NCBI GenBank assembly: GCA_033764095.1
Contig: JANRJF010000255.1
Coordinates: 20,154 to 84,153, forward strand
Direction of reading: 5' to 3'
Source: Deltaproteobacteria bacterium
Lineage (GTDB): Bacteria > Desulfobacterota > Binatia > HRBIN30 > CADEER01
DNA length: 64,000 bases
A program made the translations under genes and the position numbers. The first letter of the stretch is position 1; each line of letters begins with the position of its first letter. The notes beneath the pieces are model-generated. The model made no database searches. It had not been told where the DNA came from and was given only the letters and a program-made list of their open reading frames with translations. This document shows positions 1 through 47,459 of the stretch, one piece after another.

Positions 1-1
1 G

Positions 2-2020
2 ACCCACCTCAGCATCCTTATTTCAGCCGCCGAGCGTGCACTCCAGATGTTCGCATATGAAGATGCGGTACGTATGTACAGACAAGCGCTTGACTTCCTC
101 CCTCGCACGCCGGTCAACCAAAGGGAACGCTGCCAACTCCTCCTTTCACTCGGCGAAGCAGAGCGGCTTTCCGGGCGGGGTGGCGAGGCGCGTGAGGCGT
201 TTCGCGCCGCCGCCACGATAGCCAGATTATGCTCCGACATCGAACCATTCGCACAGGCCGCGCTCGGGCTGAGCGGGTTTCGCGCGTCAAACCCAGTCGA
301 CGTCGAGGCTATCAGCCTGATTGAGGAAGCACTTGAAAGAGCCGACCAACTCACTCTTGAGCTGCGCCACGAACTCCTCTGTGCGAGAATTGTTGCCCTG
401 CACTTCGCCCCCCACCTAACGGACATGAACAGGGACTGCGACGATGCGCTCTTTTTGGCCGACCAACTGAGGAACAATCGATCTCTCGCCCTTGCCTCGT
501 ATGCCAGACTCCTCACGGTCTTCGCCACAGTCCCCGCCGAAGAGATTAACAACCTTGCAGAACAAACTGCCGCCCTCGCGGAAACCTCGGGAGAGACCCG
601 CATCTACTTTGCTGCATTAACGTTCAGATATGGCGCACTGATCCGCCTGGGTCGGCTACCCGAATGCGATCGGATTCTTCACCAACTCATCCTCGCGACG
701 CAACGAGCCCCGTTTGCCCGACATCGCTGGCAACTCGCGCTGTTCGAAGCAGGCCGACGTCTAGCCTGGGATACACGGGAAAACATCAGGCTCTATATTG
801 AGCGAGCATTTGCCATCGGCGCCGACCTCGAACCTCTTACGGCCAGCCAACATGAAATCGCTCAAAAGGTTGTCCTAGAGTACTTGACGGGAAACCTGTC
901 GAACAACAGCGCCCTTCTTTTCGAAGCGGTGCAGACCCACCCTGACTCCGCAATCGCGCGTGCCGCTTGGGCGTTGTCGCTGTCTGACCCAGACAACCCG
1001 GCTGACGCTCAGGACGCGCTTTCATGGTTTTGCCCTGCGCGGATCGACTCGATTCCGGGCGCCTTCGCATCGCTCACCTTGGCGTTTCTCGCCGAAGCGA
1101 GTTTTCTTGCCGGGGATCGAACACTCGCCGTGCTTGTACACACGAGACTTGAAGCTTGGAGTGACGAACTAATTACACTGGGATTCGGAGCGGGCATAGT
1201 CGGTGCGGCGGGCTTCTATCTGGGACTCCTAGCTTGGCTTCAAAATGATCGCGCGCACGCGCTAGAGCTGCTAGAAGCCGCAGCAGAACTTGAACTCCGC
1301 GTCGGAGCACGACACTCATGGAGACGCACCCGGGCCGCCCTCTCCGCACTGAGGAATGGGCAGCGGACCTTCTCGATCCCCCGAGAAGATACCAACGATT
1401 TTGGCCGAGCCCCGAACCTCGGTCTCTCCGGCGGCGCTCCTCCTAGTGCACCACATCGGTTGCCGAATGTCTTCCGGAAGGAAGTCGGCGTCTGGACGAT
1501 TTGCTTCAACGGTCAGACTTCATACGTCCGCGATCAACTCGGCTTGGAGTATATTCGCCTGCTTTTGCGTGCCCCCGAGAAGGATATCCATGCGATTGAG
1601 CTAGTTCAGTCAGTCAGCCGCTCACCAGCGGAGACCCATCGCTTTCCAATTCACCAGACGGGCATCGAGCAAACAGACCGCGAGGCGCTGAACCAATATC
1701 GTCAGCGGCTGGCAGAGCTTTCCGCAGACATCGAGTCCGCGGACATCGACAACGATACCGGCCGAGCGGAACGCCTACGCGCGGAGCAGGAGTTGCTCTT
1801 GGAGGAGATTTCGCGGTCAAGGAACTATAAAAATCATATCCGCCGAGCGGGATCCGATGCCGAGCGGGCTCGCGTCGCCGTTAGAAATCGCATCACCAGC
1901 GCTTTGAAGAGCATAGGATCCGCTGACGCAAAGGCATCACGCCACCTGCAGAACGCGATTCGGACTGGCCTCTTCTGCTCGTACCGCCCAGAAGATTCCT
2001 GCAGGTGGGAACTCGACTGA
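2..2020 (+). CDS. TPR-repeat regulatory protein (STAND/MalT-like helical region), 5'-partial at window edge
   Basis: Reading frame is open from the window start through the ATG at 47 (no upstream in-frame stop). Helical TPR-like repeats (YRQALDFL, LGEAERLSG, several Ala/Leu-rich repeats). No recognisable HTH. Lower-GC codon usage. Confidence 0.45.
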   Translation, partial: THLSILISAAERALQMFAYEDAVRMYRQALDFLPRTPVNQRERCQLLLSLGEAERLSGRGGEAREAFRAAATIARLCSDIEPFAQAALGLSGFRASNPVDVEAISLIEEALERADQLTLELRHELLCARIVALHFAPHLTDMNRDCDDALFLADQLRNNRSLALASYARLLTVFATVPAEEINNLAEQTAALAETSGETRIYFAALTFRYGALIRLGRLPECDRILHQLILATQRAPFARHRWQLALFEAGRRLAWDTRENIRLYIERAFAIGADLEPLTASQHEIAQKVVLEYLTGNLSNNSALLFEAVQTHPDSAIARAAWALSLSDPDNPADAQDALSWFCPARIDSIPGAFASLTLAFLAEASFLAGDRTLAVLVHTRLEAWSDELITLGFGAGIVGAAGFYLGLLAWLQNDRAHALELLEAAAELELRVGARHSWRRTRAALSALRNGQRTFSIPREDTNDFGRAPNLGLSGGAPPSAPHRLPNVFRKEVGVWTICFNGQTSYVRDQLGLEYIRLLLRAPEKDIHAIELVQSVSRSPAETHRFPIHQTGIEQTDREALNQYRQRLAELSADIESADIDNDTGRAERLRAEQELLLEEISRSRNYKNHIRRAGSDAERARVAVRNRITSALKSIGSADAKASRHLQNAIRTGLFCSYRPEDSCRWELD

Positions 2021-2102
2021 CCACGAACTTCCCCATGAGTGGCACTCGTAGGCGCAGCCGTGCGATTAGTTCAGATATGGCGCGTTCGAGAAGTAAGACA
2101 CG

Positions 2103-3245
2103 TCACACCACACGCGACTGCCCGTTAATCACCGGCATATCCAAGCTTCCCCGCCCAAGCGCCTTATATGTCAAACCGGTTCTCGGATCAACTAACGTCG
2201 TAGCGTCGCTATGGAGCTTCGGTCGAGTATAAATTAAACGCAGTGCCTCAACGTGGCGCAATGATAAGTATCGGTCACCGTAAAGCCTGCGAATTGCCTT
2301 GCGGACGATAGGAGCATTTATGGCGCTCATCGTGGGAAAGATATGATGTTCGACGTGATATCCAAATTGGAGATGGATTGATTCGATAAAAGCAGGCGCT
2401 CGCACGGACACTGTATTGACAAGCGGATCGTTGGCAGATGTCAATGGGGTTAAGTAGTGGTTTGTGGCGATGTAGGACATTACAAGGGTATTTGCTGCTA
2501 GGGCGGGGACCACGACCAAGTAGGCGAAGTGTACAGGACCGAGGCACAGAAGCAGCAAGAGCCAAATACAAATCATGCTTCCCGTTTCGCAACAGACTCG
2601 CCGGAGAGAAATGCGCTTGTAGAACCCCCTTCGCATACTTTGCTTCAACAATACGACCCAAGCAACAACGGCGAAATGCGTGGGGAGGTAAAACCAGCTG
2701 GCAGTAGTCCCGGAGCCGGGCGCGATGGACTCCATAACCTTCAGGTAAGGGGTGCGCTCCCATAGATGAAGCGTACCGAAGTGATCGGTATCACCCATTA
2801 CATGACCCGTGTATGCGTGGTGGGTTTGATTATGCCACGCAACCCAGAACGTCGGAGACGTACAATATGGCAGCAGGCCAATGTATCCGACGATATTTTC
2901 GACGAGTCGGCTGCCCACCACGGCGTGATGCATCGTCTCATGGGCAAGAAACGTTATGCAGCCCCAACTGTGTCCCGCCAAAAGGCCGAACGGAACGGCC
3001 AACCACCAAGGCAGGTTGAGATACAATACGAGAACCGCCAGTGTGACAATGACCGTAAGATGTACCGCAAGCCAGGCCAACCGCACGGGGCGCCGTTGAA
3101 AAATCTCAGGAGGCAACTCTGCTCGGAGCTGCCGCGCGTATTCGTGCATTGTGGTAAGGCGCGCGCTTGAACCAGCAACATCCCTGCTGCCCGCATCAGC
3201 TTGCATTGGGGAGACGTCCATTTGACCGGATATAGATAGAACCAA
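2103..3245 (-). CDS. membrane-bound fatty acid desaturase family protein
   Basis: Three histidine boxes typical of integral-membrane desaturases (HETMHH, HNQTHH, HVEHH) plus several hydrophobic helices. The annotated start at 3245 is TTG; internal ATGs at ~3221 and ~3206 are possible true starts. Confidence 0.8.
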   Translation of the reverse strand: MVLSISGQMDVSPMQADAGSRDVAGSSARLTTMHEYARQLRAELPPEIFQRRPVRLAWLAVHLTVIVTLAVLVLYLNLPWWLAVPFGLLAGHSWGCITFLAHETMHHAVVGSRLVENIVGYIGLLPYCTSPTFWVAWHNQTHHAYTGHVMGDTDHFGTLHLWERTPYLKVMESIAPGSGTTASWFYLPTHFAVVAWVVLLKQSMRRGFYKRISLRRVCCETGSMICIWLLLLLCLGPVHFAYLVVVPALAANTLVMSYIATNHYLTPLTSANDPLVNTVSVRAPAFIESIHLQFGYHVEHHIFPTMSAINAPIVRKAIRRLYGDRYLSLRHVEALRLIYTRPKLHSDATTLVDPRTGLTYKALGRGSLDMPVINGQSRVV

Positions 3246-4515
3246 GCAAAAGACAGGAATTCACGCCGCCGTAGCCGTATCCGGTAACCAGTACGTTTTT
3301 CACGGATCGAGCCGTTGGCACGACCGGGAGGTTCGCCGTCAGATCACCCACTGCCGCCTCCCGAAGGTTTGTATTGGGCGGAACAATCTGGGTCGAAATG
3401 GCCAATGAGCCGGCGGCAACCTGAAAGGCCCCTGAAGCCCCAAATGGATGCCCAAGGACCCCTTTAATTGAGCTAATTGCTGGCGCTGACCCTGCCCCGC
3501 GCAGAGCGATCCTGAGAACCGCGCTCTCCTTGTCATCGAATGTCGGCGAAGAGTTTGCGTGGCTGCAGACGTAATCGATGTCTTTGGCCGATAAGCCGTA
3601 CCTCGACAGTAGTCGGAAGATTCCCTGCGCGGCCACATCGCCAGTCTGATCGATACGGTAGAGGCCCTTGGCATCGCACGAAGACTCACCCCCCAGAACC
3701 TCCGCCAACGGGGCGCCGGCCCGCTCAGCAGCTGCTGCGGCTTCCTCAAGCACGACAAAGCAGGCCCCTTCACTTAGCACGATTCCGGAATGCCTGCGGT
3801 CGAATGGACAAGACGAAAGACTTGGATCCTCGTTGAGCGTCGAGAGTTCCTGGGTTCTGCAAAGCGAGGCGAAGACGCTGGGACTCAATGGGGCCTCGGC
3901 GCCACCCGCGACGCAGAGGTCGGCTACACCCGCCTGAATCAGCAAGCTTCCTAGGCGGATTGCCTCCAATGCAGACGGGCACCCGTTCGCGATGGTCAAT
4001 TGCGGTCCTTGAGCGCCCAGTAGAGCTGCCACCTCTGCCCCCGGCCCGTGGCTAGCCGCTCCACTTACGATAAACGGATTGATCCGCCTGGCACCCCGCT
4101 CCAACATGAGGCCCACCTGAGCCTCAGCATCGGCCCAACCAGCCACCGCAGTCCCTACTACGACTGCTCTCCTGGACGGCGCATACGCACCTTCCTGCAA
4201 CCGCGCGTCCTCTGTCGCCAGCGCGGCCGCGGCGAGGGCGAACTGCGACACCCGGGGCGCGGTTCGAATCGTTCTGGAAGTCAGCAGAGGGAAAAACTCG
4301 TCGTCGGCGACCTGCCCGGCCACTCGGCACGACAAGGAGGAGGCGTCGAATCGGTCAATCGCGCGGATCGCAGACTTTCCCGAGAGAAGCGCCTTCCACA
4401 ACGCGCCCCTGCCTACGCCCACAGGCGCAACCGAGCCGATTCCGGTGATCACCGTCCGCCGTGCTGGGCTCGAAGGCCCCGGGGGAATCGCGCTTTCCAC
4501 AGGGAAACGCTTCAT
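3196..4515 (-). CDS. beta-ketoacyl-[acyl-carrier-protein] synthase (KAS I/II family)
   Basis: N-terminus RRTVITGIGSVAPVG is the classic KAS start. Full-length ~439 aa thiolase-fold condensing enzyme. Start lies 14 nt after the ACP stop. Confidence 0.85.
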   Translation of the reverse strand: MKRFPVESAIPPGPSSPARRTVITGIGSVAPVGVGRGALWKALLSGKSAIRAIDRFDASSLSCRVAGQVADDEFFPLLTSRTIRTAPRVSQFALAAAALATEDARLQEGAYAPSRRAVVVGTAVAGWADAEAQVGLMLERGARRINPFIVSGAASHGPGAEVAALLGAQGPQLTIANGCPSALEAIRLGSLLIQAGVADLCVAGGAEAPLSPSVFASLCRTQELSTLNEDPSLSSCPFDRRHSGIVLSEGACFVVLEEAAAAAERAGAPLAEVLGGESSCDAKGLYRIDQTGDVAAQGIFRLLSRYGLSAKDIDYVCSHANSSPTFDDKESAVLRIALRGAGSAPAISSIKGVLGHPFGASGAFQVAAGSLAISTQIVPPNTNLREAAVGDLTANLPVVPTARSVKNVLVTGYGYGGVNSCLLLGSIYIRSNGRLPNAS

Positions 4516-4528
4516 CTCGGATAGGCTG

Positions 4529-4783
4529 CTACCTTACGCCGGCAGCACACCCATGTATGTATTCGATTATGAGGCCGAGTTCGTTAAGCTCAATTATACG
4601 AATAGGATCTAGCTCGACATCGAACCTCTCTTCGAGCGCAACCTGCATCTCGACGAAAGCAACCGACTCCATGACGACATCCCTCTCTATCGTGGCGCGC
4701 TCATCGAGGGAAAGAGTTGGATCCTGCCCAAACTCCTTCAGCAACTGAAAAACGTACTCGGCAACCTCCTCACGACTCGGCAT
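4529..4783 (-). CDS. acyl carrier protein
   Basis: 84-aa product from an internal ATG (MPSREEVAEYVFQLLKEF...ERDVVMESVAFVEMQVALEERFDVELD). Four-helix ACP pattern with a phosphopantetheine-type Ser in the ESV motif. The upstream part of the 138-aa ORF is probably non-coding. Confidence 0.7.
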   Translation of the reverse strand: MPSREEVAEYVFQLLKEFGQDPTLSLDERATIERDVVMESVAFVEMQVALEERFDVELDPIRIIELNELGLIIEYIHGCAAGVR

Positions 4784-5060
4784 CTGAAACCTCGCGACGC
4801 CGGCCGCGAAAGCTCCGAGTCGTATCCCAAGAGTGCTGCACCGGGCGCCCTCCAGCGCCTGGGAGACCACCTCCCCAGAATGATCGCGCGTCTGGCAATG
4901 GCGGTCGCTCCAACTTTCGCGAGGTAGGTCCAGGATTTGGAACAACTGGCATCATTGACGGCTGAAGTCACGCTGAGTTACGCTTCGGGCCGGCGAGAAG
5001 TCAAGGCGATCTCCTTGGCTCCGCGAAGAACGACGCCAGCAGAGGCAACGAGACGCAATC

Positions 5061-5675
5061 GTGCGCAGCCGGACCATGCCGATAAGCACAAGAGATCTGC
5101 TCAAGGAGTTTTCGTTCAAGGTCGCCGTAGGACCTGACATTGGACCCGCCGTGAACCTCTTTCGACAGGTATATGAGGCTGACGTTGGCTTTGTGCCATC
5201 CGATGGAATGGACGATAGCGCTACCTACCTCATCGCCAAGTGCACCGATGGAGACGTCGCTGCTACATTGCGATTCCTCGGACCAGAGCATCGTCCCTTC
5301 GTGTTCGAAAAATCTTGTGAGGTGGCCCTTCCAGACGGCAGCAGGCCTGCCCTATTGAGCCGCTTTAGCGTGTCGCCGCTATTTCGCGCGGCTCCCCGCT
5401 CGATTGCGCTGCACTTTGGGATGTTGAAGCTTGCAGTCGAATTTGCGCTCCCCTTGGGCGTTACCGACCTTCTTCAATACACCCAGCCGCATCTCATCAA
5501 TTTCTACCGTGCTGCGTTCTTCGAAGCCACGGGTGTGACCTTTGAGTTGCCCCCCTTGCAGAGCAAGATGCATGTTCTTCGCCTCAACTTGCGCACGCTC
5601 GATGAGCGCTGCCGAGCCTCTAACTCCCGCGGCGCAGAGTTCCTTCGTTCTCCTGATCGAATTGTGACCCCGTAA
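5061..5675 (+). CDS. LuxI/FeeM-like N-acyltransferase (autoinducer synthase / N-acyl amino acid synthase family, GNAT fold)
   Basis: LuxI-family landmarks: R..VY....GF (equivalent to R24-F28-W34), acidic DGMDDSATYLI, RFLGP, LSRFSV (the E/L-SRFAV motif), GVTDLL...FYRAAGF. Size ~200 aa. Stop is 3 nt before the histidine kinase start. Confidence 0.6.
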   Translation: MRSRTMPISTRDLLKEFSFKVAVGPDIGPAVNLFRQVYEADVGFVPSDGMDDSATYLIAKCTDGDVAATLRFLGPEHRPFVFEKSCEVALPDGSRPALLSRFSVSPLFRAAPRSIALHFGMLKLAVEFALPLGVTDLLQYTQPHLINFYRAAFFEATGVTFELPPLQSKMHVLRLNLRTLDERCRASNSRGAEFLRSPDRIVTP

Positions 5676-5678
5676 GTA

Positions 5679-7772
5679 ATGCTCCCTTCCTGGTTCGTAC
5701 CCCTAGTGGCAGCCCTCGCAACGGCCGCGCTGGGCGTATTTGTCGCAGTGAGGGGACCGCGAGGCGAGCTGCGCGCCGCGTTTCTGTTTTTCGCCGCCAC
5801 CCTCGTCTTCTGGCACTGCTTTTATCTCGTTCTTTATTTGATACCCGACTACCAGACTGCCTTCGAGGGCGCTCGAATTCTTAGAGTCGGATCCTTCTAC
5901 ATGGTCGCCGCGGTCCTGCATCTTGCAGTTTCGGCGCGAGCAAGACCAAGGCGTCTTTGGCGGTGGATTGTCATTGGCAATTACGCTCTCGCCACCTCCT
6001 TCGTTGTCGCCAATGTATTTGACGTTTGGGTGAAGGAGCTTAGGCGAACCGACGCCGGATACGTCACAGTCGGCACGCGCTGGTACAGCATTCTGAGCCT
6101 CTACGCGTTGCTGAACTTTCTCGTCGCAATATCACTTTCGGTTCGTGACTACTGGATCACGAGGGACCCGCGGGTCAGACAGCAGGTAGGCTTTTGGCTC
6201 GCGGGCATGCTGGTCGCGCTCCCCCTCGGACTCACTAATTTCCTACCTGTTTACGGGGTCGAGTTTCCCCCGCTAGGCAATCTTGGAGCGGCCCTTTGGA
6301 CCGGAATCGTGGCGTACGCGATCGTCCGCCACAGATTGATGGACATCGACGTATTTGTCACCAAGGGGCTCGCTTACGCAGCAGTTACTCTTGTCTTGGT
6401 GACGCCAGCAATCGCAGTGTCAGTTATCCTACAGTGGTGGGCGTTCCGTGCGGTCGACTATGAATTTACGGCGGCGCTCGCGGTCCTGTTCTTGTCGATT
6501 GCCGTTTGTTTTCCGCTGGTTGTGTTCAGTGCCGAAGAGCGCCTGCAACGATCGCTGTTTCGCGCCCGCACCCAGACGCGTCGAGATCTTGCCGCCTTCT
6601 CCCGCAGCATGGTCAAAATTCTCGATAGACAAAGACTGATGGCGGAGATCTGCAACCGGCTGCACGATCTTCTCGACGTCGAACGGGTTGCAATTTACCT
6701 CTTGGATTCTTCAGGTACGCGGTTGGAACTTCGGAAGAGCCAAGGAACCCATGCAGAAACGACGGAGTTTGGGAGTCAACATCCGTTTGTTCGGTGGCTC
6801 GGCCGCCGATCCGAACCGTCGCTTCGCGAGGATGCGGAGGGGCTGGATACGGTGCAGGCAGTCTTTGTCGAGCAAGGGTGGGAGGTCTGCTTACCGATGC
6901 ATAGCGGACGTCAAATGCTCGGATTCCTAGCACTTGGGGCTCGGCATGGGAGGCAAGCGTTCGCGGGGGGCGATCTTGAGCAGTTGGCGGCTATCTCTGA
7001 CGAGGCGGGGGTCGCGTTTGAGAACGCTCGCCTGTACGAAGAGGTCCGGCGGTCCCGTGCAATCATTGATCGCACGAGCAGGCTCTCCTCGCTGGGAACC
7101 TTGGCCGCCGGGATTGCCCACGAGATCCGGAATCCTCTTGTATCGATCCATACGTTCTTCCAAATGGCGCCGACTCGACTCGGCGACGAAGAGTTCATGA
7201 CTTCATTCCTAGGACTGGCGGGAGAGGAGGTGCAGAGAATCAGTAGTTTGGTTGACGAGCTACTGATCTTTGGGAAATCGACGACGACGAATCCGACCGA
7301 GGTGCAGCCAAACGAGGTCGTCGATCGCGGCCTGGCCTTGCTAGCGCCACAGGCGCGTCAGAAGAATGTGACGCTCGATCGAAGTCTCTCAGAATCCCTC
7401 CCCCCCGTTCTGGCCGACGGCGATCAGTTGCTTCAGGTGCTCGTCAACCTGCTCCTGAATGCGATCCAAGCTACTTTGAGCGGCGGTCGCGTCACCGTCG
7501 AAACGCGCCTGATCACGGATGAGACGGGAGAATTCTGCCAGATCGAAATAGTCGACACGGGAGTCGGAATTCCCGCATCGGTTCGTGAAGCGATCTTCGA
7601 TCCCTTCTTTACAACGAAGGACCGTGGAACCGGTCTGGGCTTGTCCGTCGCGCATCGTATCGTCGCCGAATTTGGTGGGTTCCTCTCGGTCGAAAGCGCC
7701 GAAGGCCAAGGAAGCCGATTCAGCGTCAACCTACCTGCGTGCCGTAATCTGGAGTTTCCAGCTGGCGCTTAG
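5679..7772 (+). CDS. sensor histidine kinase: N-terminal ~7TM integral membrane domain, GAF domain, HisKA and HATPase_c (PrsK-like architecture)
   Basis: About seven hydrophobic helices in the first ~300 aa. GAF-like region (VAIYLLD...GFLALG). H-box LGTLAAGIAHEIRNPL. N/G1/G2 boxes (LLLNAIQA, DTGVGIP, GTGLGLSV). No receiver domain. Confidence 0.85.
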   Translation: MLPSWFVPLVAALATAALGVFVAVRGPRGELRAAFLFFAATLVFWHCFYLVLYLIPDYQTAFEGARILRVGSFYMVAAVLHLAVSARARPRRLWRWIVIGNYALATSFVVANVFDVWVKELRRTDAGYVTVGTRWYSILSLYALLNFLVAISLSVRDYWITRDPRVRQQVGFWLAGMLVALPLGLTNFLPVYGVEFPPLGNLGAALWTGIVAYAIVRHRLMDIDVFVTKGLAYAAVTLVLVTPAIAVSVILQWWAFRAVDYEFTAALAVLFLSIAVCFPLVVFSAEERLQRSLFRARTQTRRDLAAFSRSMVKILDRQRLMAEICNRLHDLLDVERVAIYLLDSSGTRLELRKSQGTHAETTEFGSQHPFVRWLGRRSEPSLREDAEGLDTVQAVFVEQGWEVCLPMHSGRQMLGFLALGARHGRQAFAGGDLEQLAAISDEAGVAFENARLYEEVRRSRAIIDRTSRLSSLGTLAAGIAHEIRNPLVSIHTFFQMAPTRLGDEEFMTSFLGLAGEEVQRISSLVDELLIFGKSTTTNPTEVQPNEVVDRGLALLAPQARQKNVTLDRSLSESLPPVLADGDQLLQVLVNLLLNAIQATLSGGRVTVETRLITDETGEFCQIEIVDTGVGIPASVREAIFDPFFTTKDRGTGLGLSVAHRIVAEFGGFLSVESAEGQGSRFSVNLPACRNLEFPAGA

Positions 7773-8148
7773 AGCGGTGGTTAATCCGAACCGCGAGTTG
7801 GACGGGTTCGGCAAACAACGGGCGGCAAGCGGGATACCGGCGAGCGCACGCTTTGGGATGCCGTGCATCCGGGGCGGCGCTGGAGCGAGTTCCAGCCGAT
7901 TCGCGGCCACGGTGCTCGCCAATTGGCGACGCGGCCAAGACGTGCCGTCGCCGCCGCAAGTCGCCAGGACCAAGCAGCGTTCCAAACGTCAGATATTGAA
8001 CGATGGCATCATTCCTGACGACATCTTCGAAGAGCCGGCCGACGACGCCGACAACGACTCAAACCCGGATACTTAGCCTCAAACCCGGACAGTCCCTCGC
8101 CCCTAGGTCGATTGATTCCGGGCGCGGGGCCTGCGAGAATAGGGTTCT

Positions 8149-8658
8149 ATGCCGCGCGCTGGTAAGGCTGAATCGTTGTTCAAGGTTGGAGAGAAGGTCG
8201 TCTACCCTGCACACGGAGTCGGCGTAATCCAGAGCATCCAGACCAAGGTCGTCTCCGGGACCGAGAAGACGTTTTACATGCTGAAAATCCTGGACAGCGA
8301 CATGACCATCATGATCCCGACCGAGAACGTGGCCTCCGTGGGGCTGCGGCGGGTGATCGGGCGGGAAATGGTCACCAAGGTCTACAAGATCCTGCGCGAG
8401 AAGCGGGTCGAGATCGACCAACAGACGTGGAACCGGCGCTACCGGGAGTACACCGAGAAGATCAAGACCGGCTCGGTCCTGGAGATCGCCAAGGTGCTGC
8501 GCGACCTGTTCGTGCTGAAGGGCGACAAGGAGCTGTCCTTCGGCGAACGGAAGATGCTGGATACGGCGCGCAACCTGCTGGTCAAAGAGCTCTCCATCGC
8601 TCGCTCCCACCCGGAGGAGAAGATCATGGAAGAGCTCAAGAACATCTTCGCCCACTGA
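8149..8658 (+). CDS. cdnL: CarD/CdnL family RNA polymerase-binding transcription factor
   Basis: FKVGEKVVYPAHGVGVIQSI, the CarD_CdnL_TRCF N-terminal RNAP-interacting domain. 169 aa. Immediately upstream of ispD, as in many Actinobacteria and Myxococcota. Confidence 0.9.
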   Translation: MPRAGKAESLFKVGEKVVYPAHGVGVIQSIQTKVVSGTEKTFYMLKILDSDMTIMIPTENVASVGLRRVIGREMVTKVYKILREKRVEIDQQTWNRRYREYTEKIKTGSVLEIAKVLRDLFVLKGDKELSFGERKMLDTARNLLVKELSIARSHPEEKIMEELKNIFAH

Positions 8659-8693: not shown

Positions 8694-9380
8694 GTGTCGA
8701 TCGTCGCGATCGTCGTCGCCGGTGGCCCCGGCAGTCGCCTCGGAGCCGACGTCCCGAAGGGGTTCGTCCGCCTCGCCGGCGAGGCGCTGATGGCGCGCTC
8801 GCTGCGCGCCATGCTGGCGTCGCCGGTGGTGAGCCGCGCGGTGGTGGTGGTGCCGCCCGGCCACACCGACGAAGCCAAGGCACTGCTGGAGTCGGCGCGC
8901 GACGCGCGCCCGCTGCTGGTGATCGAGGGCGGCGTGGAACGGCAGGACTCGGTGCGCAACGGCCTGGCCGCGGCCGGCGATGCCGACGTGGTCGCCATCC
9001 ACGACGCCGCCCGGCCGTTCGTCAGCCGGGCGGCGGTCGACGACGCCATCGCGACGGCTCGCCAATACGGCGCGGCCATCGTCGCCACGCCGGCCACCGA
9101 CACGATCAAGCTGGTGCATCCGGACGGCTGGGTCGAGACGACCCCACCGCGCGACCGCCTGTGGCTGGCGCAGACCCCGCAGGTCTTTCGCGCCAACCTG
9201 CTGCGCCGCGCCCACGCGCGCGCGCCACACAGTCTCGCCACCGACGACGCGCTGCTGGTCGAGGCGCTCGGCGAGCGCGTCTACGTCGTGCGCGGCAACC
9301 CGGAGAACCGCAAGATCACGACGCCCGACGACCTGCGCTGGGCCGAGGCGCTGCTGGCGCGCGCGCCAGCCCCTCGTTGA
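8694..9380 (+). CDS. ispD: 2-C-methyl-D-erythritol 4-phosphate cytidylyltransferase
   Basis: GTG start. IVAIVVAGGPGSRLG nucleotide-binding motif and IspD-family sequence throughout. Confidence 0.9.
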   Translation: MSIVAIVVAGGPGSRLGADVPKGFVRLAGEALMARSLRAMLASPVVSRAVVVVPPGHTDEAKALLESARDARPLLVIEGGVERQDSVRNGLAAAGDADVVAIHDAARPFVSRAAVDDAIATARQYGAAIVATPATDTIKLVHPDGWVETTPPRDRLWLAQTPQVFRANLLRRAHARAPHSLATDDALLVEALGERVYVVRGNPENRKITTPDDLRWAEALLARAPAPR

Positions 9381-12118: not shown

Positions 12119-13813
12119 ATGTACGATCTGATCATTCGCGACGCCGATCTCGTCGACGGCAGCGGCGCCGCCCGGCAACGCGGCGACCTGGCGATCGCCG
12201 ACGGCCGCATCGCCGCGATCGGCGACGTGCAAGGCGCGGCGCACCGCGAGATCCACGCCGCCGGGCGCGTCGCCACCCCCGGGTTCATCGACGTGCACAC
12301 GCACTACGACTGCCAGGTGTCGTGGGATCCGGCGCTGACGCCGTCGTCCTGGCACGGCGTCACCAGCGTGGTGATGGGCAACTGCGGCTTCTCGATCGCG
12401 CCCTGCCGGCGCGCGCATCGCGATCTGCTGATGGAGATGCTGCTCTACGTCGAGGGCATGCCGACCGAAGCGCTGCGCGCCGGCATCCGCTGGGAGTGGG
12501 AGTGCTTCCCGGAGTATCTGGACGCCGTCGAACGGGCGCGCCCGGCGGTGAACACCGCCGCCTTCGTCGGCCACTCGGCGGTGCGCTACTTCGTCATGGG
12601 CGACGCCGCCGCCGAACGCGCCGCCAACGCCGACGAGCTGGCGCGCATGCAGGACGTCGTGCGCGAGGCGCTGCGCGCCGGCGCGATCGGCTTCTCGACG
12701 TCCGAGTCGCCGACCCACTTCTTCGGCAGCGGCGTACCGGTGCCGAGCCGCGTCGCGCCGCGCGACGAGCTGCTGGCGCTGAGCCGCGTGCTCGGCGAGC
12801 TCGGCCGCGGCCTGGTCGAGGTGGCGCCGCTGCACCTGCTCGGCGGCACCGACGACAAGCTCGCCGACCAGGCGTTCTACGCCGAGGTCGCGCGCGCCTG
12901 CGGCCGACCGGTCACCTGGGCGCCGCTGCTCGCCAATCCGTTCGATCCATCCGGCGCGCTGCAGATCATCGAACAGGCGGCGGCGGAACAACGCGCCGGC
13001 GCCCAGGTGTATCCGCAGGTCGGCTGCCGGCCGCTGGAAGTGCGCATCTCGTTCGCCAGCGCCGGCATCGCGGTGGCCAACAACCCGTTCTGGAGCCCGA
13101 TCGTCGCCCAGCCGCTGGCCGAGCGGGTCGCGCAGCTGCGCAGCCGCGCGTTCCGCGACGAGCTGCGCGCCATGTCGTCGGGCGGCGGCTTCGTCGCCGC
13201 GCTGGCGCCGAGCTGGCATCACATCCTGCTGCGCCTGTCCGGCAACCCGGCGCACGCGCCGCTGATCGATCGCAGCATTGCCGAGCTGGTCGCCGAGCGC
13301 GGCGGCGACGAGGTGGACACGCTGCTCGATCTCGCCCTCGCCGCCGACCTCGACTGCCAGTTCGGCGTGCCGATCATGAACACCGACGAAGCCGTGGTCG
13401 GCCAGCTGCTGCGCCATCCGGCCGCGCTGGTGGCGCTCTCCGATGCCGGAGCGCACGTCGACACGCTCGCCGACCAGGGGTTCACCACGACGCTGCTCGC
13501 CCACTGGGCGCGCGATCGCCGCGCGCTCACGCTCGAGGCCGCGGTCCGCCTGGTCACCGCGGTGCCCAGCACCCTCTACGGCCTCGGCCAGCGCGGGCAA
13601 TTGCGCGTCGGCTGGGCCGCCGACGTCGTGCTGTTCGACGAAGCGCGCCTCGGCCTGCAGCGCACCGAATTGGTGCGCGACCTCCCCGGCGGCGCCGCGC
13701 GTCTCATTCAGCGTCCGCTCGGCATCACGCACGTGCTGGTCAACGGCGCCGTGCTGGTCGACGATGGCGCCCAGACCGACGCGCGCAGCGGCCGCGTGCT
13801 GCGCGGCGCCTGA
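12119..13813 (+). CDS. N-acyl-D-amino-acid deacylase / D-aminoacylase family amidohydrolase
   Basis: [10 protein letters not shown] metal-binding start, MGNCGFS and the D-aminoacylase pattern through the C-terminal beta-domain. 564 aa. Confidence 0.85.
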
Positions 13814-13848
13814 CAGGGATCGCCTTGAAAACCCGACAGGTCGCAACT

Positions 13849-14934
13849 ATGAAGAAGCCCGCGTTGCCCATGATTCGTCCGGTCGAGTGGCGCAATGGCG
13901 CCGTCGTCCTGCTCGATCAGCGTCTGCTGCCGTTGCAGGAAGTCTACCGCGTCTATCGCGACCACCGCGACGTGGCACGCGCGATCAAGGACATGGTGGT
14001 GCGCGGCGCGCCCGCCATCGGCGTCGCGGCGGCCATGGGCATCGCGCTCGGCATGGCGCAGGCGAGCGACAGCGATCAGGCGCGCGCCTTCGATCGTATC
14101 GCGCGGCGCTTCGCGGCGACCCGGCCGACGGCGGTGAACCTCTTCTGGGCGATCGAGCGCATGCGGCGCGCCCTGGCGCGCGCGCGCGGCCGCAGCCCCG
14201 AAGTGGTGCGCGAGATCCTGCGCCAGGAGGCGGTGGCGATCTACCACGAGGACATCGCCAGCAACCGCGCGCTCGGCGCGCACGGCGCCGGCCTGCTGAA
14301 GCCGCGCACGACGGTGCTGACGCACTGCAACGCCGGTGCGCTGGCCACCGCCGGCTACGGCACCGCGCTGGGCGTCATCCGCGCCGCGCAGGAGGCAGGC
14401 AAGCAGATTGCCGTGATCGCCGCCGAAACACGGCCGTTCCTGCAGGGCGCGCGTCTGACCGCCTGGGAGCTGAAGAAGGATCGCGTGCCGGTGACGCTGA
14501 TCACCGACAACATGGTCGGCCACGTCATGAAGCGCGGCACGGTCGGCGCGGTGATCGTCGGCGCCGACCGCGTCGCCGCCAACGGCGACGTCGCCAACAA
14601 GATCGGCACCTACGGCGTGGCGGTGATCGCCGCGCGGCACCGGATTCCGTTCTATGTCGCGGCGCCGACCTCGACGGTCGATCTCGCCTGCGCGGACGGC
14701 GACGCGATCCCGATCGAGGAGCGCGCGGTGCGCGAGGTGACGCATCTCGGCGACGCGCAGATTGCGCCGAGCGGCATCAAGGTGATGAACCCGGCGTTCG
14801 ACGTCACGCCGCACACGCTGGTGACGGCGATCATCACCGAGCGCGGCGTCGCGCGCGCGCCCTACACGCGCTCGCTGGCGCGGATGCTGGGCGGCGAGAC
14901 GCGCGACGTCCGCCGGCGCGCCAGCCGCTCGTAA
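13849..14934 (+). CDS. mtnA: S-methyl-5-thioribose-1-phosphate isomerase
   Basis: ATG at 13849 inside a long chimeric six-frame ORF. eIF-2B/MtnA family sequence ([39 protein letters not shown]). Confidence 0.85.
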
Positions 14935-47010: not shown

Positions 47011-47386
47011 GTCGGTCTCACCTCCCCTAAATCCGACGCGCCGCGCAGCGTGCCCGTTGCCTGCGCGACACGGCACTCACATCGTCTCGCGACCGCGCAT
47101 GCCGAACACCGCCGCTCCACTCCGGCGTCGGCACTCAGGCTCTCGAGCCGTCGAGCCGAGGTTTCGGATCTTTCCGTTCACGCGCGTGTCGACCAACTCG
47201 TCTGCGACTGGTTTCAGTGCCGGCACCGTACAATGTTCAACGGCAAAGTCAAGGATGTTTGATGCATGACAGAGCAGCATCAGATAGCCCAAAGATTGTT
47301 TGCTGACGCCGACTTGCACCGGGCACGCGATGCTGATTGTCGCATGCATAACGCAAGTCGCGGGGCGCGGCGGGTGACCTGGTAAG

Positions 47387-47459
47387 TGGAGCTGAGCGGA
47401 GTCGAACCGCCGACCTCCTGAATGCCATTCAGGCGCTCTCCCAACTGAGCTACAGCCCC
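47387..47459 (-). tRNA. tRNA-Ala (anticodon GGC)
   Basis: 73-nt cloverleaf: GGGGCTG/CAGCTCC acceptor stem with the G3:U70 Ala identity pair. D-arm GCTCAGTTGGGAGAGC. Anticodon loop ATGGCAT. T-arm GGCGGTTCGACTCCGCT. Discriminator A, no encoded CCA. Confidence 0.9.

Follow-up and report, generated by a model that had tools for sequence, protein, structure and literature searches.

A low-GC gene module upstream of cdnL in a Binatia contig as a probable copy of a conserved, hypervariable lipid-signal cassette locus

Introduction

Among the bacterial signal synthases, LuxM, CqsA and RpfF are paired with the membrane sensor kinases LuxN, CqsS and RpfC, respectively. The present study concerns a gene module that likely encodes a lipid signal and its receptor and occupies at least the first 7.8 kb of a 64,000-nt stretch of contig JANRJF010000255.1 (positions 20,154 to 84,153, forward strand; assembly GCA_033764095.1, Binatia). 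This whole stretch is referred to below as the window, and coordinates are given within it unless a related locus is named. Enzymes of the FeeM type produce N-acyl amino acids that act as surfactants or antibiotics (PMC4897644, PMC7293339), and some of these N-acyl amino acid synthases (NAS) are associated with PEP-CTERM/exosortase systems (Craig et al. 2011, cited after PMC4897644 and PMC7293339). As to the organization of such a locus, the E. coli group 3 capsules are an example of a hypervariable low-GC cassette locus between conserved flanks (PMC10433991). Our literature searches returned no paper on the cassette described here or on quorum sensing in Binatia, and nothing relevant on PrsK.

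The module resembles the O-antigen rfb and capsule loci of Enterobacteria in its fixed chromosomal site, its conserved flanks and a content that is non-orthologous or strongly diverged between close relatives, as well as in a GC content well below that of the genome without amelioration (here in 7/7 hosts with GC ≥ 0.66) and a phylogeny conflicting with that of the flanks. It differs from them in its cargo, a putative lipid-signal synthase and a sensor kinase instead of polysaccharide genes; its variants keep a homologous core, whereas capsule-type loci carry unrelated gene sets; its host is an uncultured high-GC phylum, and the variation described here is between lineages.

The cassette enzyme is closest to the FeeM-type NAS, with which it shares the GNAT fold (template-modeling (TM) score of 0.67 to FeeM, 2g0b), a Pfam FeeM match and a dedicated adjoining acyl carrier protein (ACP). 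At the same time, the window protein is only ~15% identical to FeeM and scores 0.1 bit under the Pfam cutoff, and the cassette, unlike FeeM-type systems, includes its own beta-ketoacyl-ACP synthase (KAS) and a desaturase or acyl-CoA dehydrogenase (ACAD). The partial PrsK match of the cassette kinase and the nearby TPR-type regulator are reminiscent of PrsK/PrsT; however, the PrsK score of the kinase is 126 bits (cutoff 300), no NCBIfam NAS model matches the enzyme at E ≤ 0.01, and an exosortase gene was not noticed in any locus read. As in LuxI-type or LuxM-LuxN-like pairs, the synthase gene lies directly beside that of a multi-pass membrane histidine kinase, and the synthase fold is related to the acyl-homoserine lactone (AHL) synthases TofI, LasI and BjaI (TM 0.58-0.67), the family profile matching TofI with E 0.0018. 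Unlike the LuxI-type AHL synthases, the window protein has no Autoind_synth match and carries Leu in place of the Glu of the E-x-S-R-F block, and the receptor of the cassette has a seven-transmembrane (7TM) plus GAF architecture.

A preliminary description, made from the window alone, had read the module as a horizontally acquired accessory island. In our opinion, the first ≥ 7.8 kb of the window are probably a copy of a conserved, hypervariable lipid-signal cassette locus, which lies upstream of the cdnL promoter in a group of Binatia-type bacteria and is exchanged horizontally; they are not a newly inserted island, because a homologous low-GC cassette is found at the same site in related genomes. 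An undescribed cassette is thereby defined in an uncultured, globally distributed phylum, consisting of an ACP, a KAS, a tailoring enzyme, a FeeM/LuxI-like acyltransferase, a 7TM-GAF kinase and an AAA16/TPR regulator.

Composition break in the window

The genes of the module and the first two genes of its right flank are as follows (GC3, GC content at third codon positions).

2..2020, plus strand: AAA16/TPR (STAND-type) regulator gene, of which the left window edge leaves the 3' two-thirds; GC3 0.62
2103..3245, minus strand: membrane fatty-acid desaturase (Pfam FA_desaturase, E 1e-27); GC3 0.585
3196..4515, minus strand: FabF-like beta-ketoacyl-ACP synthase, KAS II-like (Pfam ketoacyl-synt and Ketoacyl-synt_C); GC3 0.655
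4529..4783, minus strand: dedicated ACP of 84 aa (Pfam PP-binding, 23.9 bits, cutoff 20.8); GC3 0.60
5061..5675, plus strand: FeeM/LuxI-like GNAT acyltransferase of 204 aa (Pfam FeeM, 26.9 bits, cutoff 27); GC3 0.63
5679..7772, plus strand: 7TM-GAF-HisKA-HATPase sensor histidine kinase without a receiver domain (Pfam HisKA_7TM, GAF_3, HisKA, HATPase_c); GC3 0.65
8149..8658, plus strand: cdnL (Pfam CarD_TRCF_RID and CarD_C); GC3 0.88
8694..9380, plus strand: ispD (Pfam IspD); GC3 0.92

GC was computed by 1-kb windows and 7.8-kb chunks and GC3 per gene, with a crude open reading frame (ORF) call beyond the island. Bases 1-7772 have a GC content of 58%, and the 7.8-kb chunk containing them (0.581) lies below the seven others (0.652-0.728). 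By 1-kb windows, GC is 0.53-0.62 in positions 1-8000, 0.70-0.78 from 9 to 33 kb and 0.61-0.74 from 33 to 64 kb. Since the 47 ORFs called outside the island have a GC3 of 0.876 ± 0.050 (standard deviation, sd; minimum 0.757), its genes are more than 4 sd low, and by the same ORF call positions 1-7730 are the sole stretch of the window longer than 1.1 kb without a high-GC3 ORF. The break described earlier was confirmed: a first ~8 kb lower in GC than the rest, an abrupt shift between the end of the kinase gene (7772) and the start of cdnL (8149), with GC3 rising from 0.59-0.66 to 0.88, and high GC3 downstream, including the part from 33 to 64 kb, where total GC is 62-70% instead of the ~70% given earlier for the rest of the window. 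The total GC of cdnL is only 0.59, but this stems from the amino acids it encodes and not from the codons chosen; by GC3 the gene resembles the host, and the boundary is therefore placed between 7772 and 8149. More closely, the composition switches between the kinase stop codon and the cdnL promoter (~8110).

The codons CTA (24-fold), TTA (17-fold), ATA (15-fold), CTT (14-fold) and AGA (10-fold) are enriched in the island relative to host genes, in line with the richness in ATA and TTA reported in the preliminary description, and 32% of the Leu codons in the island end in A or T against 3% in host genes. The shift is mostly synonymous, since the amino-acid composition of the island is near host-like (Lys 1.4%, Ala 12.4%). 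The dinucleotide signature distance between the island and host chunks is 144 (range 101-175), against 67 ± 25 between host chunks. The first 7.8 kb therefore have the atypical base composition and codon usage of a classical genomic island.

Homologous modules at the same site in related genomes

Related loci, designated here by L numbers, were fetched via the FeeM-like protein, the kinase and IspD. Their core consists of the KAS and ACP genes, with or without an ACAD gene, and of the FeeM-like and kinase genes on the opposite strand. It recurs in the same divergent order in nine independent genomes or contigs of Binatia type, with an AAA16/TPR regulator gene beside the module in four cases (window, L005, L009, L012). 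This recurrence agrees with the earlier proposal that the six genes form one functional module. Two short low-GC contigs (L001, L002) contain the module only, and of the module genes L012 has the FeeM-like gene, the kinase gene and the AAA16 regulator gene alone.

The module adjoins cdnL-ispD five times, in the window, L005, L008, L013 and L015. The closest relative is L015, the flank of which encodes 12 proteins, CdnL first and a GH3 enzyme last, in the same order as in the window and with 62-98% identity (mean 83%): cdnL is 97.5% and ispD 75% identical, and ten more genes from nadE to GH3 follow in the same order (62-98%), so that collinearity extends from 8.1 through 18.8 kb. The assignment of the right flank to the core genome is supported by this conservation of cdnL-ispD and the next 10 kb. 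In L015 a low-GC module occupies the same site, inverted relative to cdnL and with an ACAD present and the desaturase absent, and its proteins are 37-50% identical to those of the window (kinase 46%, FeeM-like protein 37%, KAS 50%). In the synteny comparison at cdnL suggested in the preliminary description, cdnL abuts a homologous module in the relatives; the right flank is collinear and the cassette content differs.

The tailoring enzyme varies by locus. It is a desaturase in the window, a cytochrome P450 in L008 (12270-13580) and an ACAD-like protein in L005, L009, L010, L013 and L015, the ACAD-less layout being common to the window, L008 and L001. This variation looks like non-orthologous displacement, which would change the acyl chain. 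The desaturase had no tblastn match in L001-L006 (the later-fetched loci were not searched by tblastn) and appears specific to the cassette of the window, where it occupies the place of the ACAD-like gene of the relatives.

The composition of the modules and their flanks was compared across the hosts.

Window: module GC3 0.63, flank GC3 0.90
L015: module GC3 0.58, flank GC3 0.86
L005: module GC3 0.61, flank GC3 0.80
L008: module GC3 0.62, flank GC3 0.83
L009: module GC3 0.60, flank GC3 0.89
L010: module GC3 0.58, flank GC3 0.82
L012: module GC3 0.64, flank GC3 0.91
L013 (host ~63% GC): module GC3 0.76, flank GC3 0.80
L014 (host ~63% GC): module GC3 0.74, flank GC3 0.79

In hosts with GC ≥ 0.66 the module is of low GC in 7/7 cases, with GC3 of 0.58-0.64 against 0.80-0.91 in the flanks. 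GC1 and GC2 of the kinase gene are the same in all loci, and only GC3 varies. The dinucleotide signature distance is 52 ± 15 between modules, 129 between a module and its own flank and 128 between a module and foreign flanks. The modules show no sign of amelioration, and the low GC3 together with the distinct dinucleotide signature is a property of the cassette in every high-GC host examined, not the mark of one recent arrival. According to the preliminary description, an acquired island would be refuted if all close relatives carried this block with unchanged composition, and essentially this was found in L015/L017, L005 and L008; L013 has the module at host-like GC. As a matter of method, an abrupt low-GC block beside core genes is insufficient to call a recent acquisition; diverged relatives have the same anomaly at the same site.

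Probable exchange between lineages

Bootstrap neighbor-joining trees (200 replicates) were built with ispD, nadE and PALP representing the flank. The flank tree paired the window with L015 (200/200), whereas the kinase tree paired the window with L008 (196/200) and L015 with L005 (200/200); the same two pairings were obtained with the kinase, KAS and FeeM-like protein together (179/200 and 200/200). The conflict between the kinase and flank trees means that at least the FeeM-kinase core was exchanged after the split of the window and L015 lineages, or that ancient alleles were sorted. A conserved flank (83% identity), a more divergent content (37-50%) and a conflicting phylogeny, which together characterize a hypervariable locus, were thus all observed. 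The horizontal component of the preliminary description is upheld by the tree conflict (196-200/200), and its component of a new insertion is not, given the homologous low-GC module at the same site in L015/L017.

Several observations weigh against the interpretation as an exchanged cassette locus. Only L015/L017 were found independently of the module, via ispD, and L005, L008 and L013 came from searches with module genes; the five loci therefore do not reflect how often the cdnL site is occupied. The KAS-only tree did not resolve the relationships. The left boundary lies outside the window, as had been stated earlier (the regulator frame is open to base 2), and a mobility gene or att site is possible there; moreover, the distal module edge carries IS3 and IS110 transposases in L015/L017 and L008. 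The cassette variation is known between lineages only, and the signaling function is deduced from homology and gene order only. Finally, in L013 and L014 (hosts of ~63% GC) the module GC3 is nearly host-like, and the low GC3 is therefore not universal.

Proposed function of the cassette

The predicted synthase was examined by profile and structure searches. Among 21 family members, 19 matched Acetyltransf_5, 14 matched FeeM (E ≤ 1) and 5 weakly matched Autoind_synth; when the family profile was run against PDB, only the AHL synthase TofI was matched. The AlphaFold2 model of the window protein has a predicted confidence (pLDDT) of 94, and its top Foldseek matches were the carrier-protein-dependent SbzI, FeeM (2g0b, TM 0.67), and TofI, RpaI and BjaI (TM 0.60-0.67), which places it in the FeeM/LuxI-type GNAT fold. 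The window protein had no match to Autoind_synth (PF00765) at E ≤ 1, and in the TofI alignment it keeps the Ser and Arg of the E-x-S-R-F block with Leu at the Glu position; it is not a LuxI-type AHL synthase by this family definition. The label of LuxI-like synthase given earlier should accordingly be replaced, FeeM being the best Pfam score. No NCBIfam model, those for NAS included, was matched at E ≤ 0.01, and no homologue was found on 72,556 plasmids. The family is rare, with 123 cluster representatives among 1.84 billion proteins. We regard the protein as a putative acyl-ACP-dependent N-acyl amino acid (signal) synthase; the acyl-ACP donor is suggested only by the adjacent dedicated ACP.

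The kinase gene starts 3 nt past the stop codon of the FeeM-like gene and lies directly downstream of it in every locus read, with a gap of -4 to 19 nt in the window, L008, L009, L013, L014 and L015 and adjacency also in L001, L005, L011 and L012; a synthase gene and a multi-pass sensor kinase gene are thus conserved side by side. More than 480 kinase homologues were found, several of the few with a named source being Candidatus Binatia, and the best non-self match among 5.8 billion proteins was 55% identical. On TIGR02916 (PrsK) the kinase scored 125.8 bits, under the cutoff of 300, and with the FeeM-like protein unmatched as well, the pair is not assigned to the PEP-CTERM/exosortase NAS and PrsK by NCBIfam. 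Among the loci, identity is 26-45% for the FeeM-like protein and 31-53% for the kinase sensor and GAF domains, and reaches 54-62% for the kinase core.

In the proposed scheme, the KAS and the tailoring enzyme would together assemble a specific acyl chain, carried by the dedicated ACP, the tailoring step being performed by the desaturase in the window, by the ACAD in most relatives and with a P450 added in L008. The GNAT would then move the acyl chain onto an amine, yielding an N-acyl amino acid or an AHL-like lipid. This lipid may leave the cell via the MMPL exporter whose gene adjoins the module in L013, L014 and probably L005, and the 7TM domain of the kinase from the same cassette may sense it, the lipid and the kinase forming a private signal/receptor pair. 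A private lipid (N-acyl amino acid-like) signal with its receptor is the likely function to be inferred from this gene set, which looks like a diversifying signal/receptor system and offers a concrete object for heterologous expression.

A possible, though rather doubtful, alternative is that the product is a structural or surface-active lipid (an OlsB-type aminolipid or a biosurfactant), with the kinase merely regulating its production upon another cue. The 19/21 Acetyltransf_5 matches are in line with this idea, as the ornithine-lipid synthase OlsB also belongs to this GNAT family. The same applies to the MMPL lipid exporter adjoining the module in L013 and L014 and to the surfactant and antibiotic N-acyl amino acids made by FeeM-type enzymes (PMC4897644, PMC7293339). 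However, the acyltransferase and the 7TM kinase are tightly coupled in every locus, a second 7TM-domain receptor is encoded next door in L010, where the sigma-54 activator adjoining the kinase carries a fused homologous 7TM domain with 33% identity, and the extreme diversity of synthase and sensor together with cassette swapping fits specificity pairs better than a housekeeping lipid.

In L014, a second pair consisting of a KAS and a 7TM-GAF kinase, without a second FeeM-like gene, is located directly upstream of the module (4138-7568); the two kinases of this locus share 53% identity, and an MMPL exporter gene and plsX adjoin.

Possible origin and maintenance of the low GC3

Candidate explanations for why GC3 stays low are continual replacement of the cassette from a lower-GC pool (e.g., lower-GC Binatota), escape from GC-biased gene conversion because the locus has diverged too far for recombination, and a selective advantage of AT-rich or rare-codon sequence. 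A stronger version, which can be offered only tentatively and is on the unlikely side, holds that low GC3 belongs throughout the phylum to a private lipid-signaling (kin or "pherotype") cassette and is actively maintained there, the cassette types being ancient alleles that define specificity groups in Binatia. Two routes are open here, the escape from GC-biased gene conversion or an AT-rich, rare-codon regulatory gate acting via a silencer or a rare tRNA. Whichever applies, a gene set with GC3 ~0.6 within genomes of GC3 ~0.9, encoding proteins 45-55% identical, is a test case for models of amelioration, GC-biased gene conversion and silencing, and if the locus does escape GC-biased gene conversion, it would serve as a natural experiment on why bacterial genomes stay GC-rich.

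It is unlikely that the history of the cassette was purely vertical, i.e., that the module was always at this site, diverged fast and lost GC3 in place without any exchange, which could be caused by diversifying selection on the signal/receptor pair and AT-biased mutation uncountered by GC-biased gene conversion or codon selection. Five genomes with the module at the same locus, the outgroup L013 with the arrangement of L005 and L015, the divergence concentrated in the FeeM-like protein and the kinase sensor and GAF domains, and a host-like amino-acid composition with a mostly synonymous shift would all suit such a history, and recombining bacterial genes are said to have higher GC3, as Lassalle and coauthors reportedly found in 2015. 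The strongly supported conflict between the flank and kinase trees speaks against it. So do the different subtypes (desaturase and ACAD) and opposite orientations of the cassettes of the window and L015 despite their 83% identical flanks, and the grouping of the window with L008 and L001, which are also ACAD-less.

It is distinctly improbable that the block is a classical genomic island, which this lineage alone would have received beside cdnL from an unrelated donor of low GC so recently that it is not yet ameliorated. The module does share with such islands the atypical GC, GC3, codons and dinucleotides and a sharp boundary against core genes; its phylogeny conflicts with that of the flank, its left edge lies outside the window, and lower-GC donors exist in the phylum, Binatota genomes having 53-73% GC (bioRxiv 10.1101/2020.09.14.296780). 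However, it is unlike them in that positions 1-9.5 kb contain no tRNA, integrase or bounding direct repeats and in that the site is not empty in close relatives: a homologous module is present in the nearest relative, L015/L017, at low GC, and in the three more distant loci L005, L008 and L013 (L015/L017 alone having been found without module genes). Additionally, the FeeM-like protein lacks plasmid homologues in the search given above, the best kinase match of 55% means that no recent donor has been sampled, and the composition anomaly, common to 7/7 high-GC carriers within a narrow module GC3 of 0.58-0.64, looks like a steady state and not like arrivals of different age.

An assembly chimera, in which a contig of this metagenome-assembled genome would join low-GC and high-GC populations near cdnL, could be suspected from the abrupt composition switch and from the relatives' assemblies that break at the locus, but is highly improbable, as the switch falls in a non-conserved spacer, where two populations would have no k-mers in common, the junction of a low-GC module with a high-GC3 cdnL occurs in three other genomes (L005, L008, L015/L017), and junctions are reproduced in independent assemblies (L007/L008 and L015/L017, and L010/L011 at another site).

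As for these duplicate assemblies, L007 matches L008 at every position over 22 kb, L010 (NCBI) and L011 (Logan) show 99.99% identity with the module junctions at a non-cdnL site reproduced, and L015 and L017 are 99.8% identical across the module-cdnL junction. The (nearly) identical pairs L007/L008 and L010/L011 carry no polymorphism signal.

The L001/L002 contigs were considered as pieces of a low-GC donor genome and rejected, as they contain the module alone. Position-specific GC regressions (Lawrence-Ochman coefficients) for amelioration or reverse amelioration were uninformative because the flanks show the same offset as the modules.

Mobile elements were seen at several of the loci. An IS3-family transposase gene abuts the 3' end of the kinase gene in L015 (1-611) and L017 (73-941), and in L008 (14797-16197) the P450 gene is followed by an rve fragment and an IS110 transposase gene. 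The ORF hyp202 of L015 was tried as a regulator remnant and rejected, being a fragment of the IS3 transposase. The L016 contig (1-401) ends inside cdnL, and L015 starts in the insertion sequence; such assembly breaks at the cdnL locus hint at repeats or strain-level variation.

Right edge and cdnL promoter

The right edge of the variable region is marked by the following two features.

7773..8105, no strand: non-conserved spacer at the right edge of the variable region, with an inverted repeat at 7786-7811 inside
8112..8140, plus strand: cdnL promoter, with a -35 box TTGATT at 8112-8117, a 17-nt spacer and an extended -10 element TGCGAGAAT at 8132-8140

The cdnL promoter is the first sequence in common with the relatives: in the alignment of five upstream regions (window, L015, L005, L008, L013), the TTGAC and TGCnAnAAT promoter motifs are conserved, and no similarity was found upstream of the promoter. 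The small ORFs in the spacer had no Pfam matches. A perfect 12-bp direct repeat, CTCAAACCCGGA, is located at 8058-8069 and 8078-8089, 8 bp apart and ~20 nt upstream of the -35 box, and could be a regulator site or a rearrangement scar.

As listed, the cdnL ORF encodes 169 aa and starts with an ATG at 8149, just 9 nt past the predicted -10 element. The cdnL genes of the relatives are annotated with 160 aa, and their start position corresponds to 8173-8175 in the window, where TTG is found here and ATG in L015, L008 and L013, which makes the true start of cdnL in the window uncertain.

Candidate regulatory elements and individual genes of the cassette

An inverted repeat is present in the divergent intergenic region between the ACP and FeeM-like genes.

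4955..5004, no strand: inverted repeat TTGAC-N40-GTCAA

It is the single match in the 64-kb window, with 0.27 expected by chance. The same repeat with N43-45 is the sole match per locus in L001 (756-809), L009 (9285-9339), L010 (9240-9294), L011 (9020-9074) and L013 (9267-9321), always between the ACP and FeeM-like genes; the TTGAC-N40-45-GTCAA pattern was not found in L005, L008, L014 and L015/L017. It is a candidate operator or overlapping promoter pair. Sigma-54 activators neighbor the module in L009, L010 and L012, and despite this no sigma-54 promoter match was obtained in nine ACP-FeeM intergenic regions.

The regulator called a TPR regulator in the preliminary description is of TPR type, but what the window contains is only the C-terminal part of a longer protein. 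The frame open from base 2 encodes the C-terminal 672 residues of an AAA16/TPR protein of ~1100 aa, 29-33% identical over ~655 aa to residues 416-1138 of the full-length homologues (1095-1138 aa) adjoining the module in L005, L009 and L012. The L005 homologue matches AAA_16 with E 7e-24, and the window fragment has only insignificant TPR matches in Pfam. GC3 of the fragment is 0.59-0.68 across all 80-codon bins. A search of the genome contig collection with the fragment gave a sole match, L003, a Binatia homologue 29% identical and without the module.

Genes at the module edge look mosaic in L005, L012 and L010, judging by GC3 along their sequence. The AAA16/TPR regulator genes of L005 (12767-16117) and L012 (12207-15494) switch within the gene, from 0.78-0.89 to 0.55-0.64 and from 0.82-0.91 to 0.47-0.72, respectively, the N-terminal ATPase part being host-like and the C-terminal part low. 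In the L010 gene for the 7TM-sigma-54 activator (12256-14631), the 7TM part has a GC3 of 0.53-0.65 and the AAA+ part 0.80-0.86.

The best NCBIfam model for the desaturase was DesB-like (220 bits, cutoff 500), and its translation shows three His boxes, HETMHH, HNQTHH and HVEHH. The KAS scored 302 bits on TIGR03150 (fabF), under the cutoff, and is 50-55% identical to the module KAS of seven other loci. The ACP is 39-52% identical to the module ACPs of relatives, and the Ser of its ESV motif is kept in L001 and L005.

Outside the cassette, the part of the window from 33000 to 64000 has a total GC of 0.61-0.74 (mostly 0.62-0.70) with GC3 still at 0.76-0.93, and is not a second island. Its genes are ordinary, encoding an IclR regulator, electron transfer flavoprotein (ETF) alpha/beta, an HdrD-like Fe-S protein, UDP-glucose dehydrogenase, cohesin- and dockerin-domain proteins and MgsA, and it contains the only tRNA gene of the window, tRNA-Ala(GGC), at 47386-47459.

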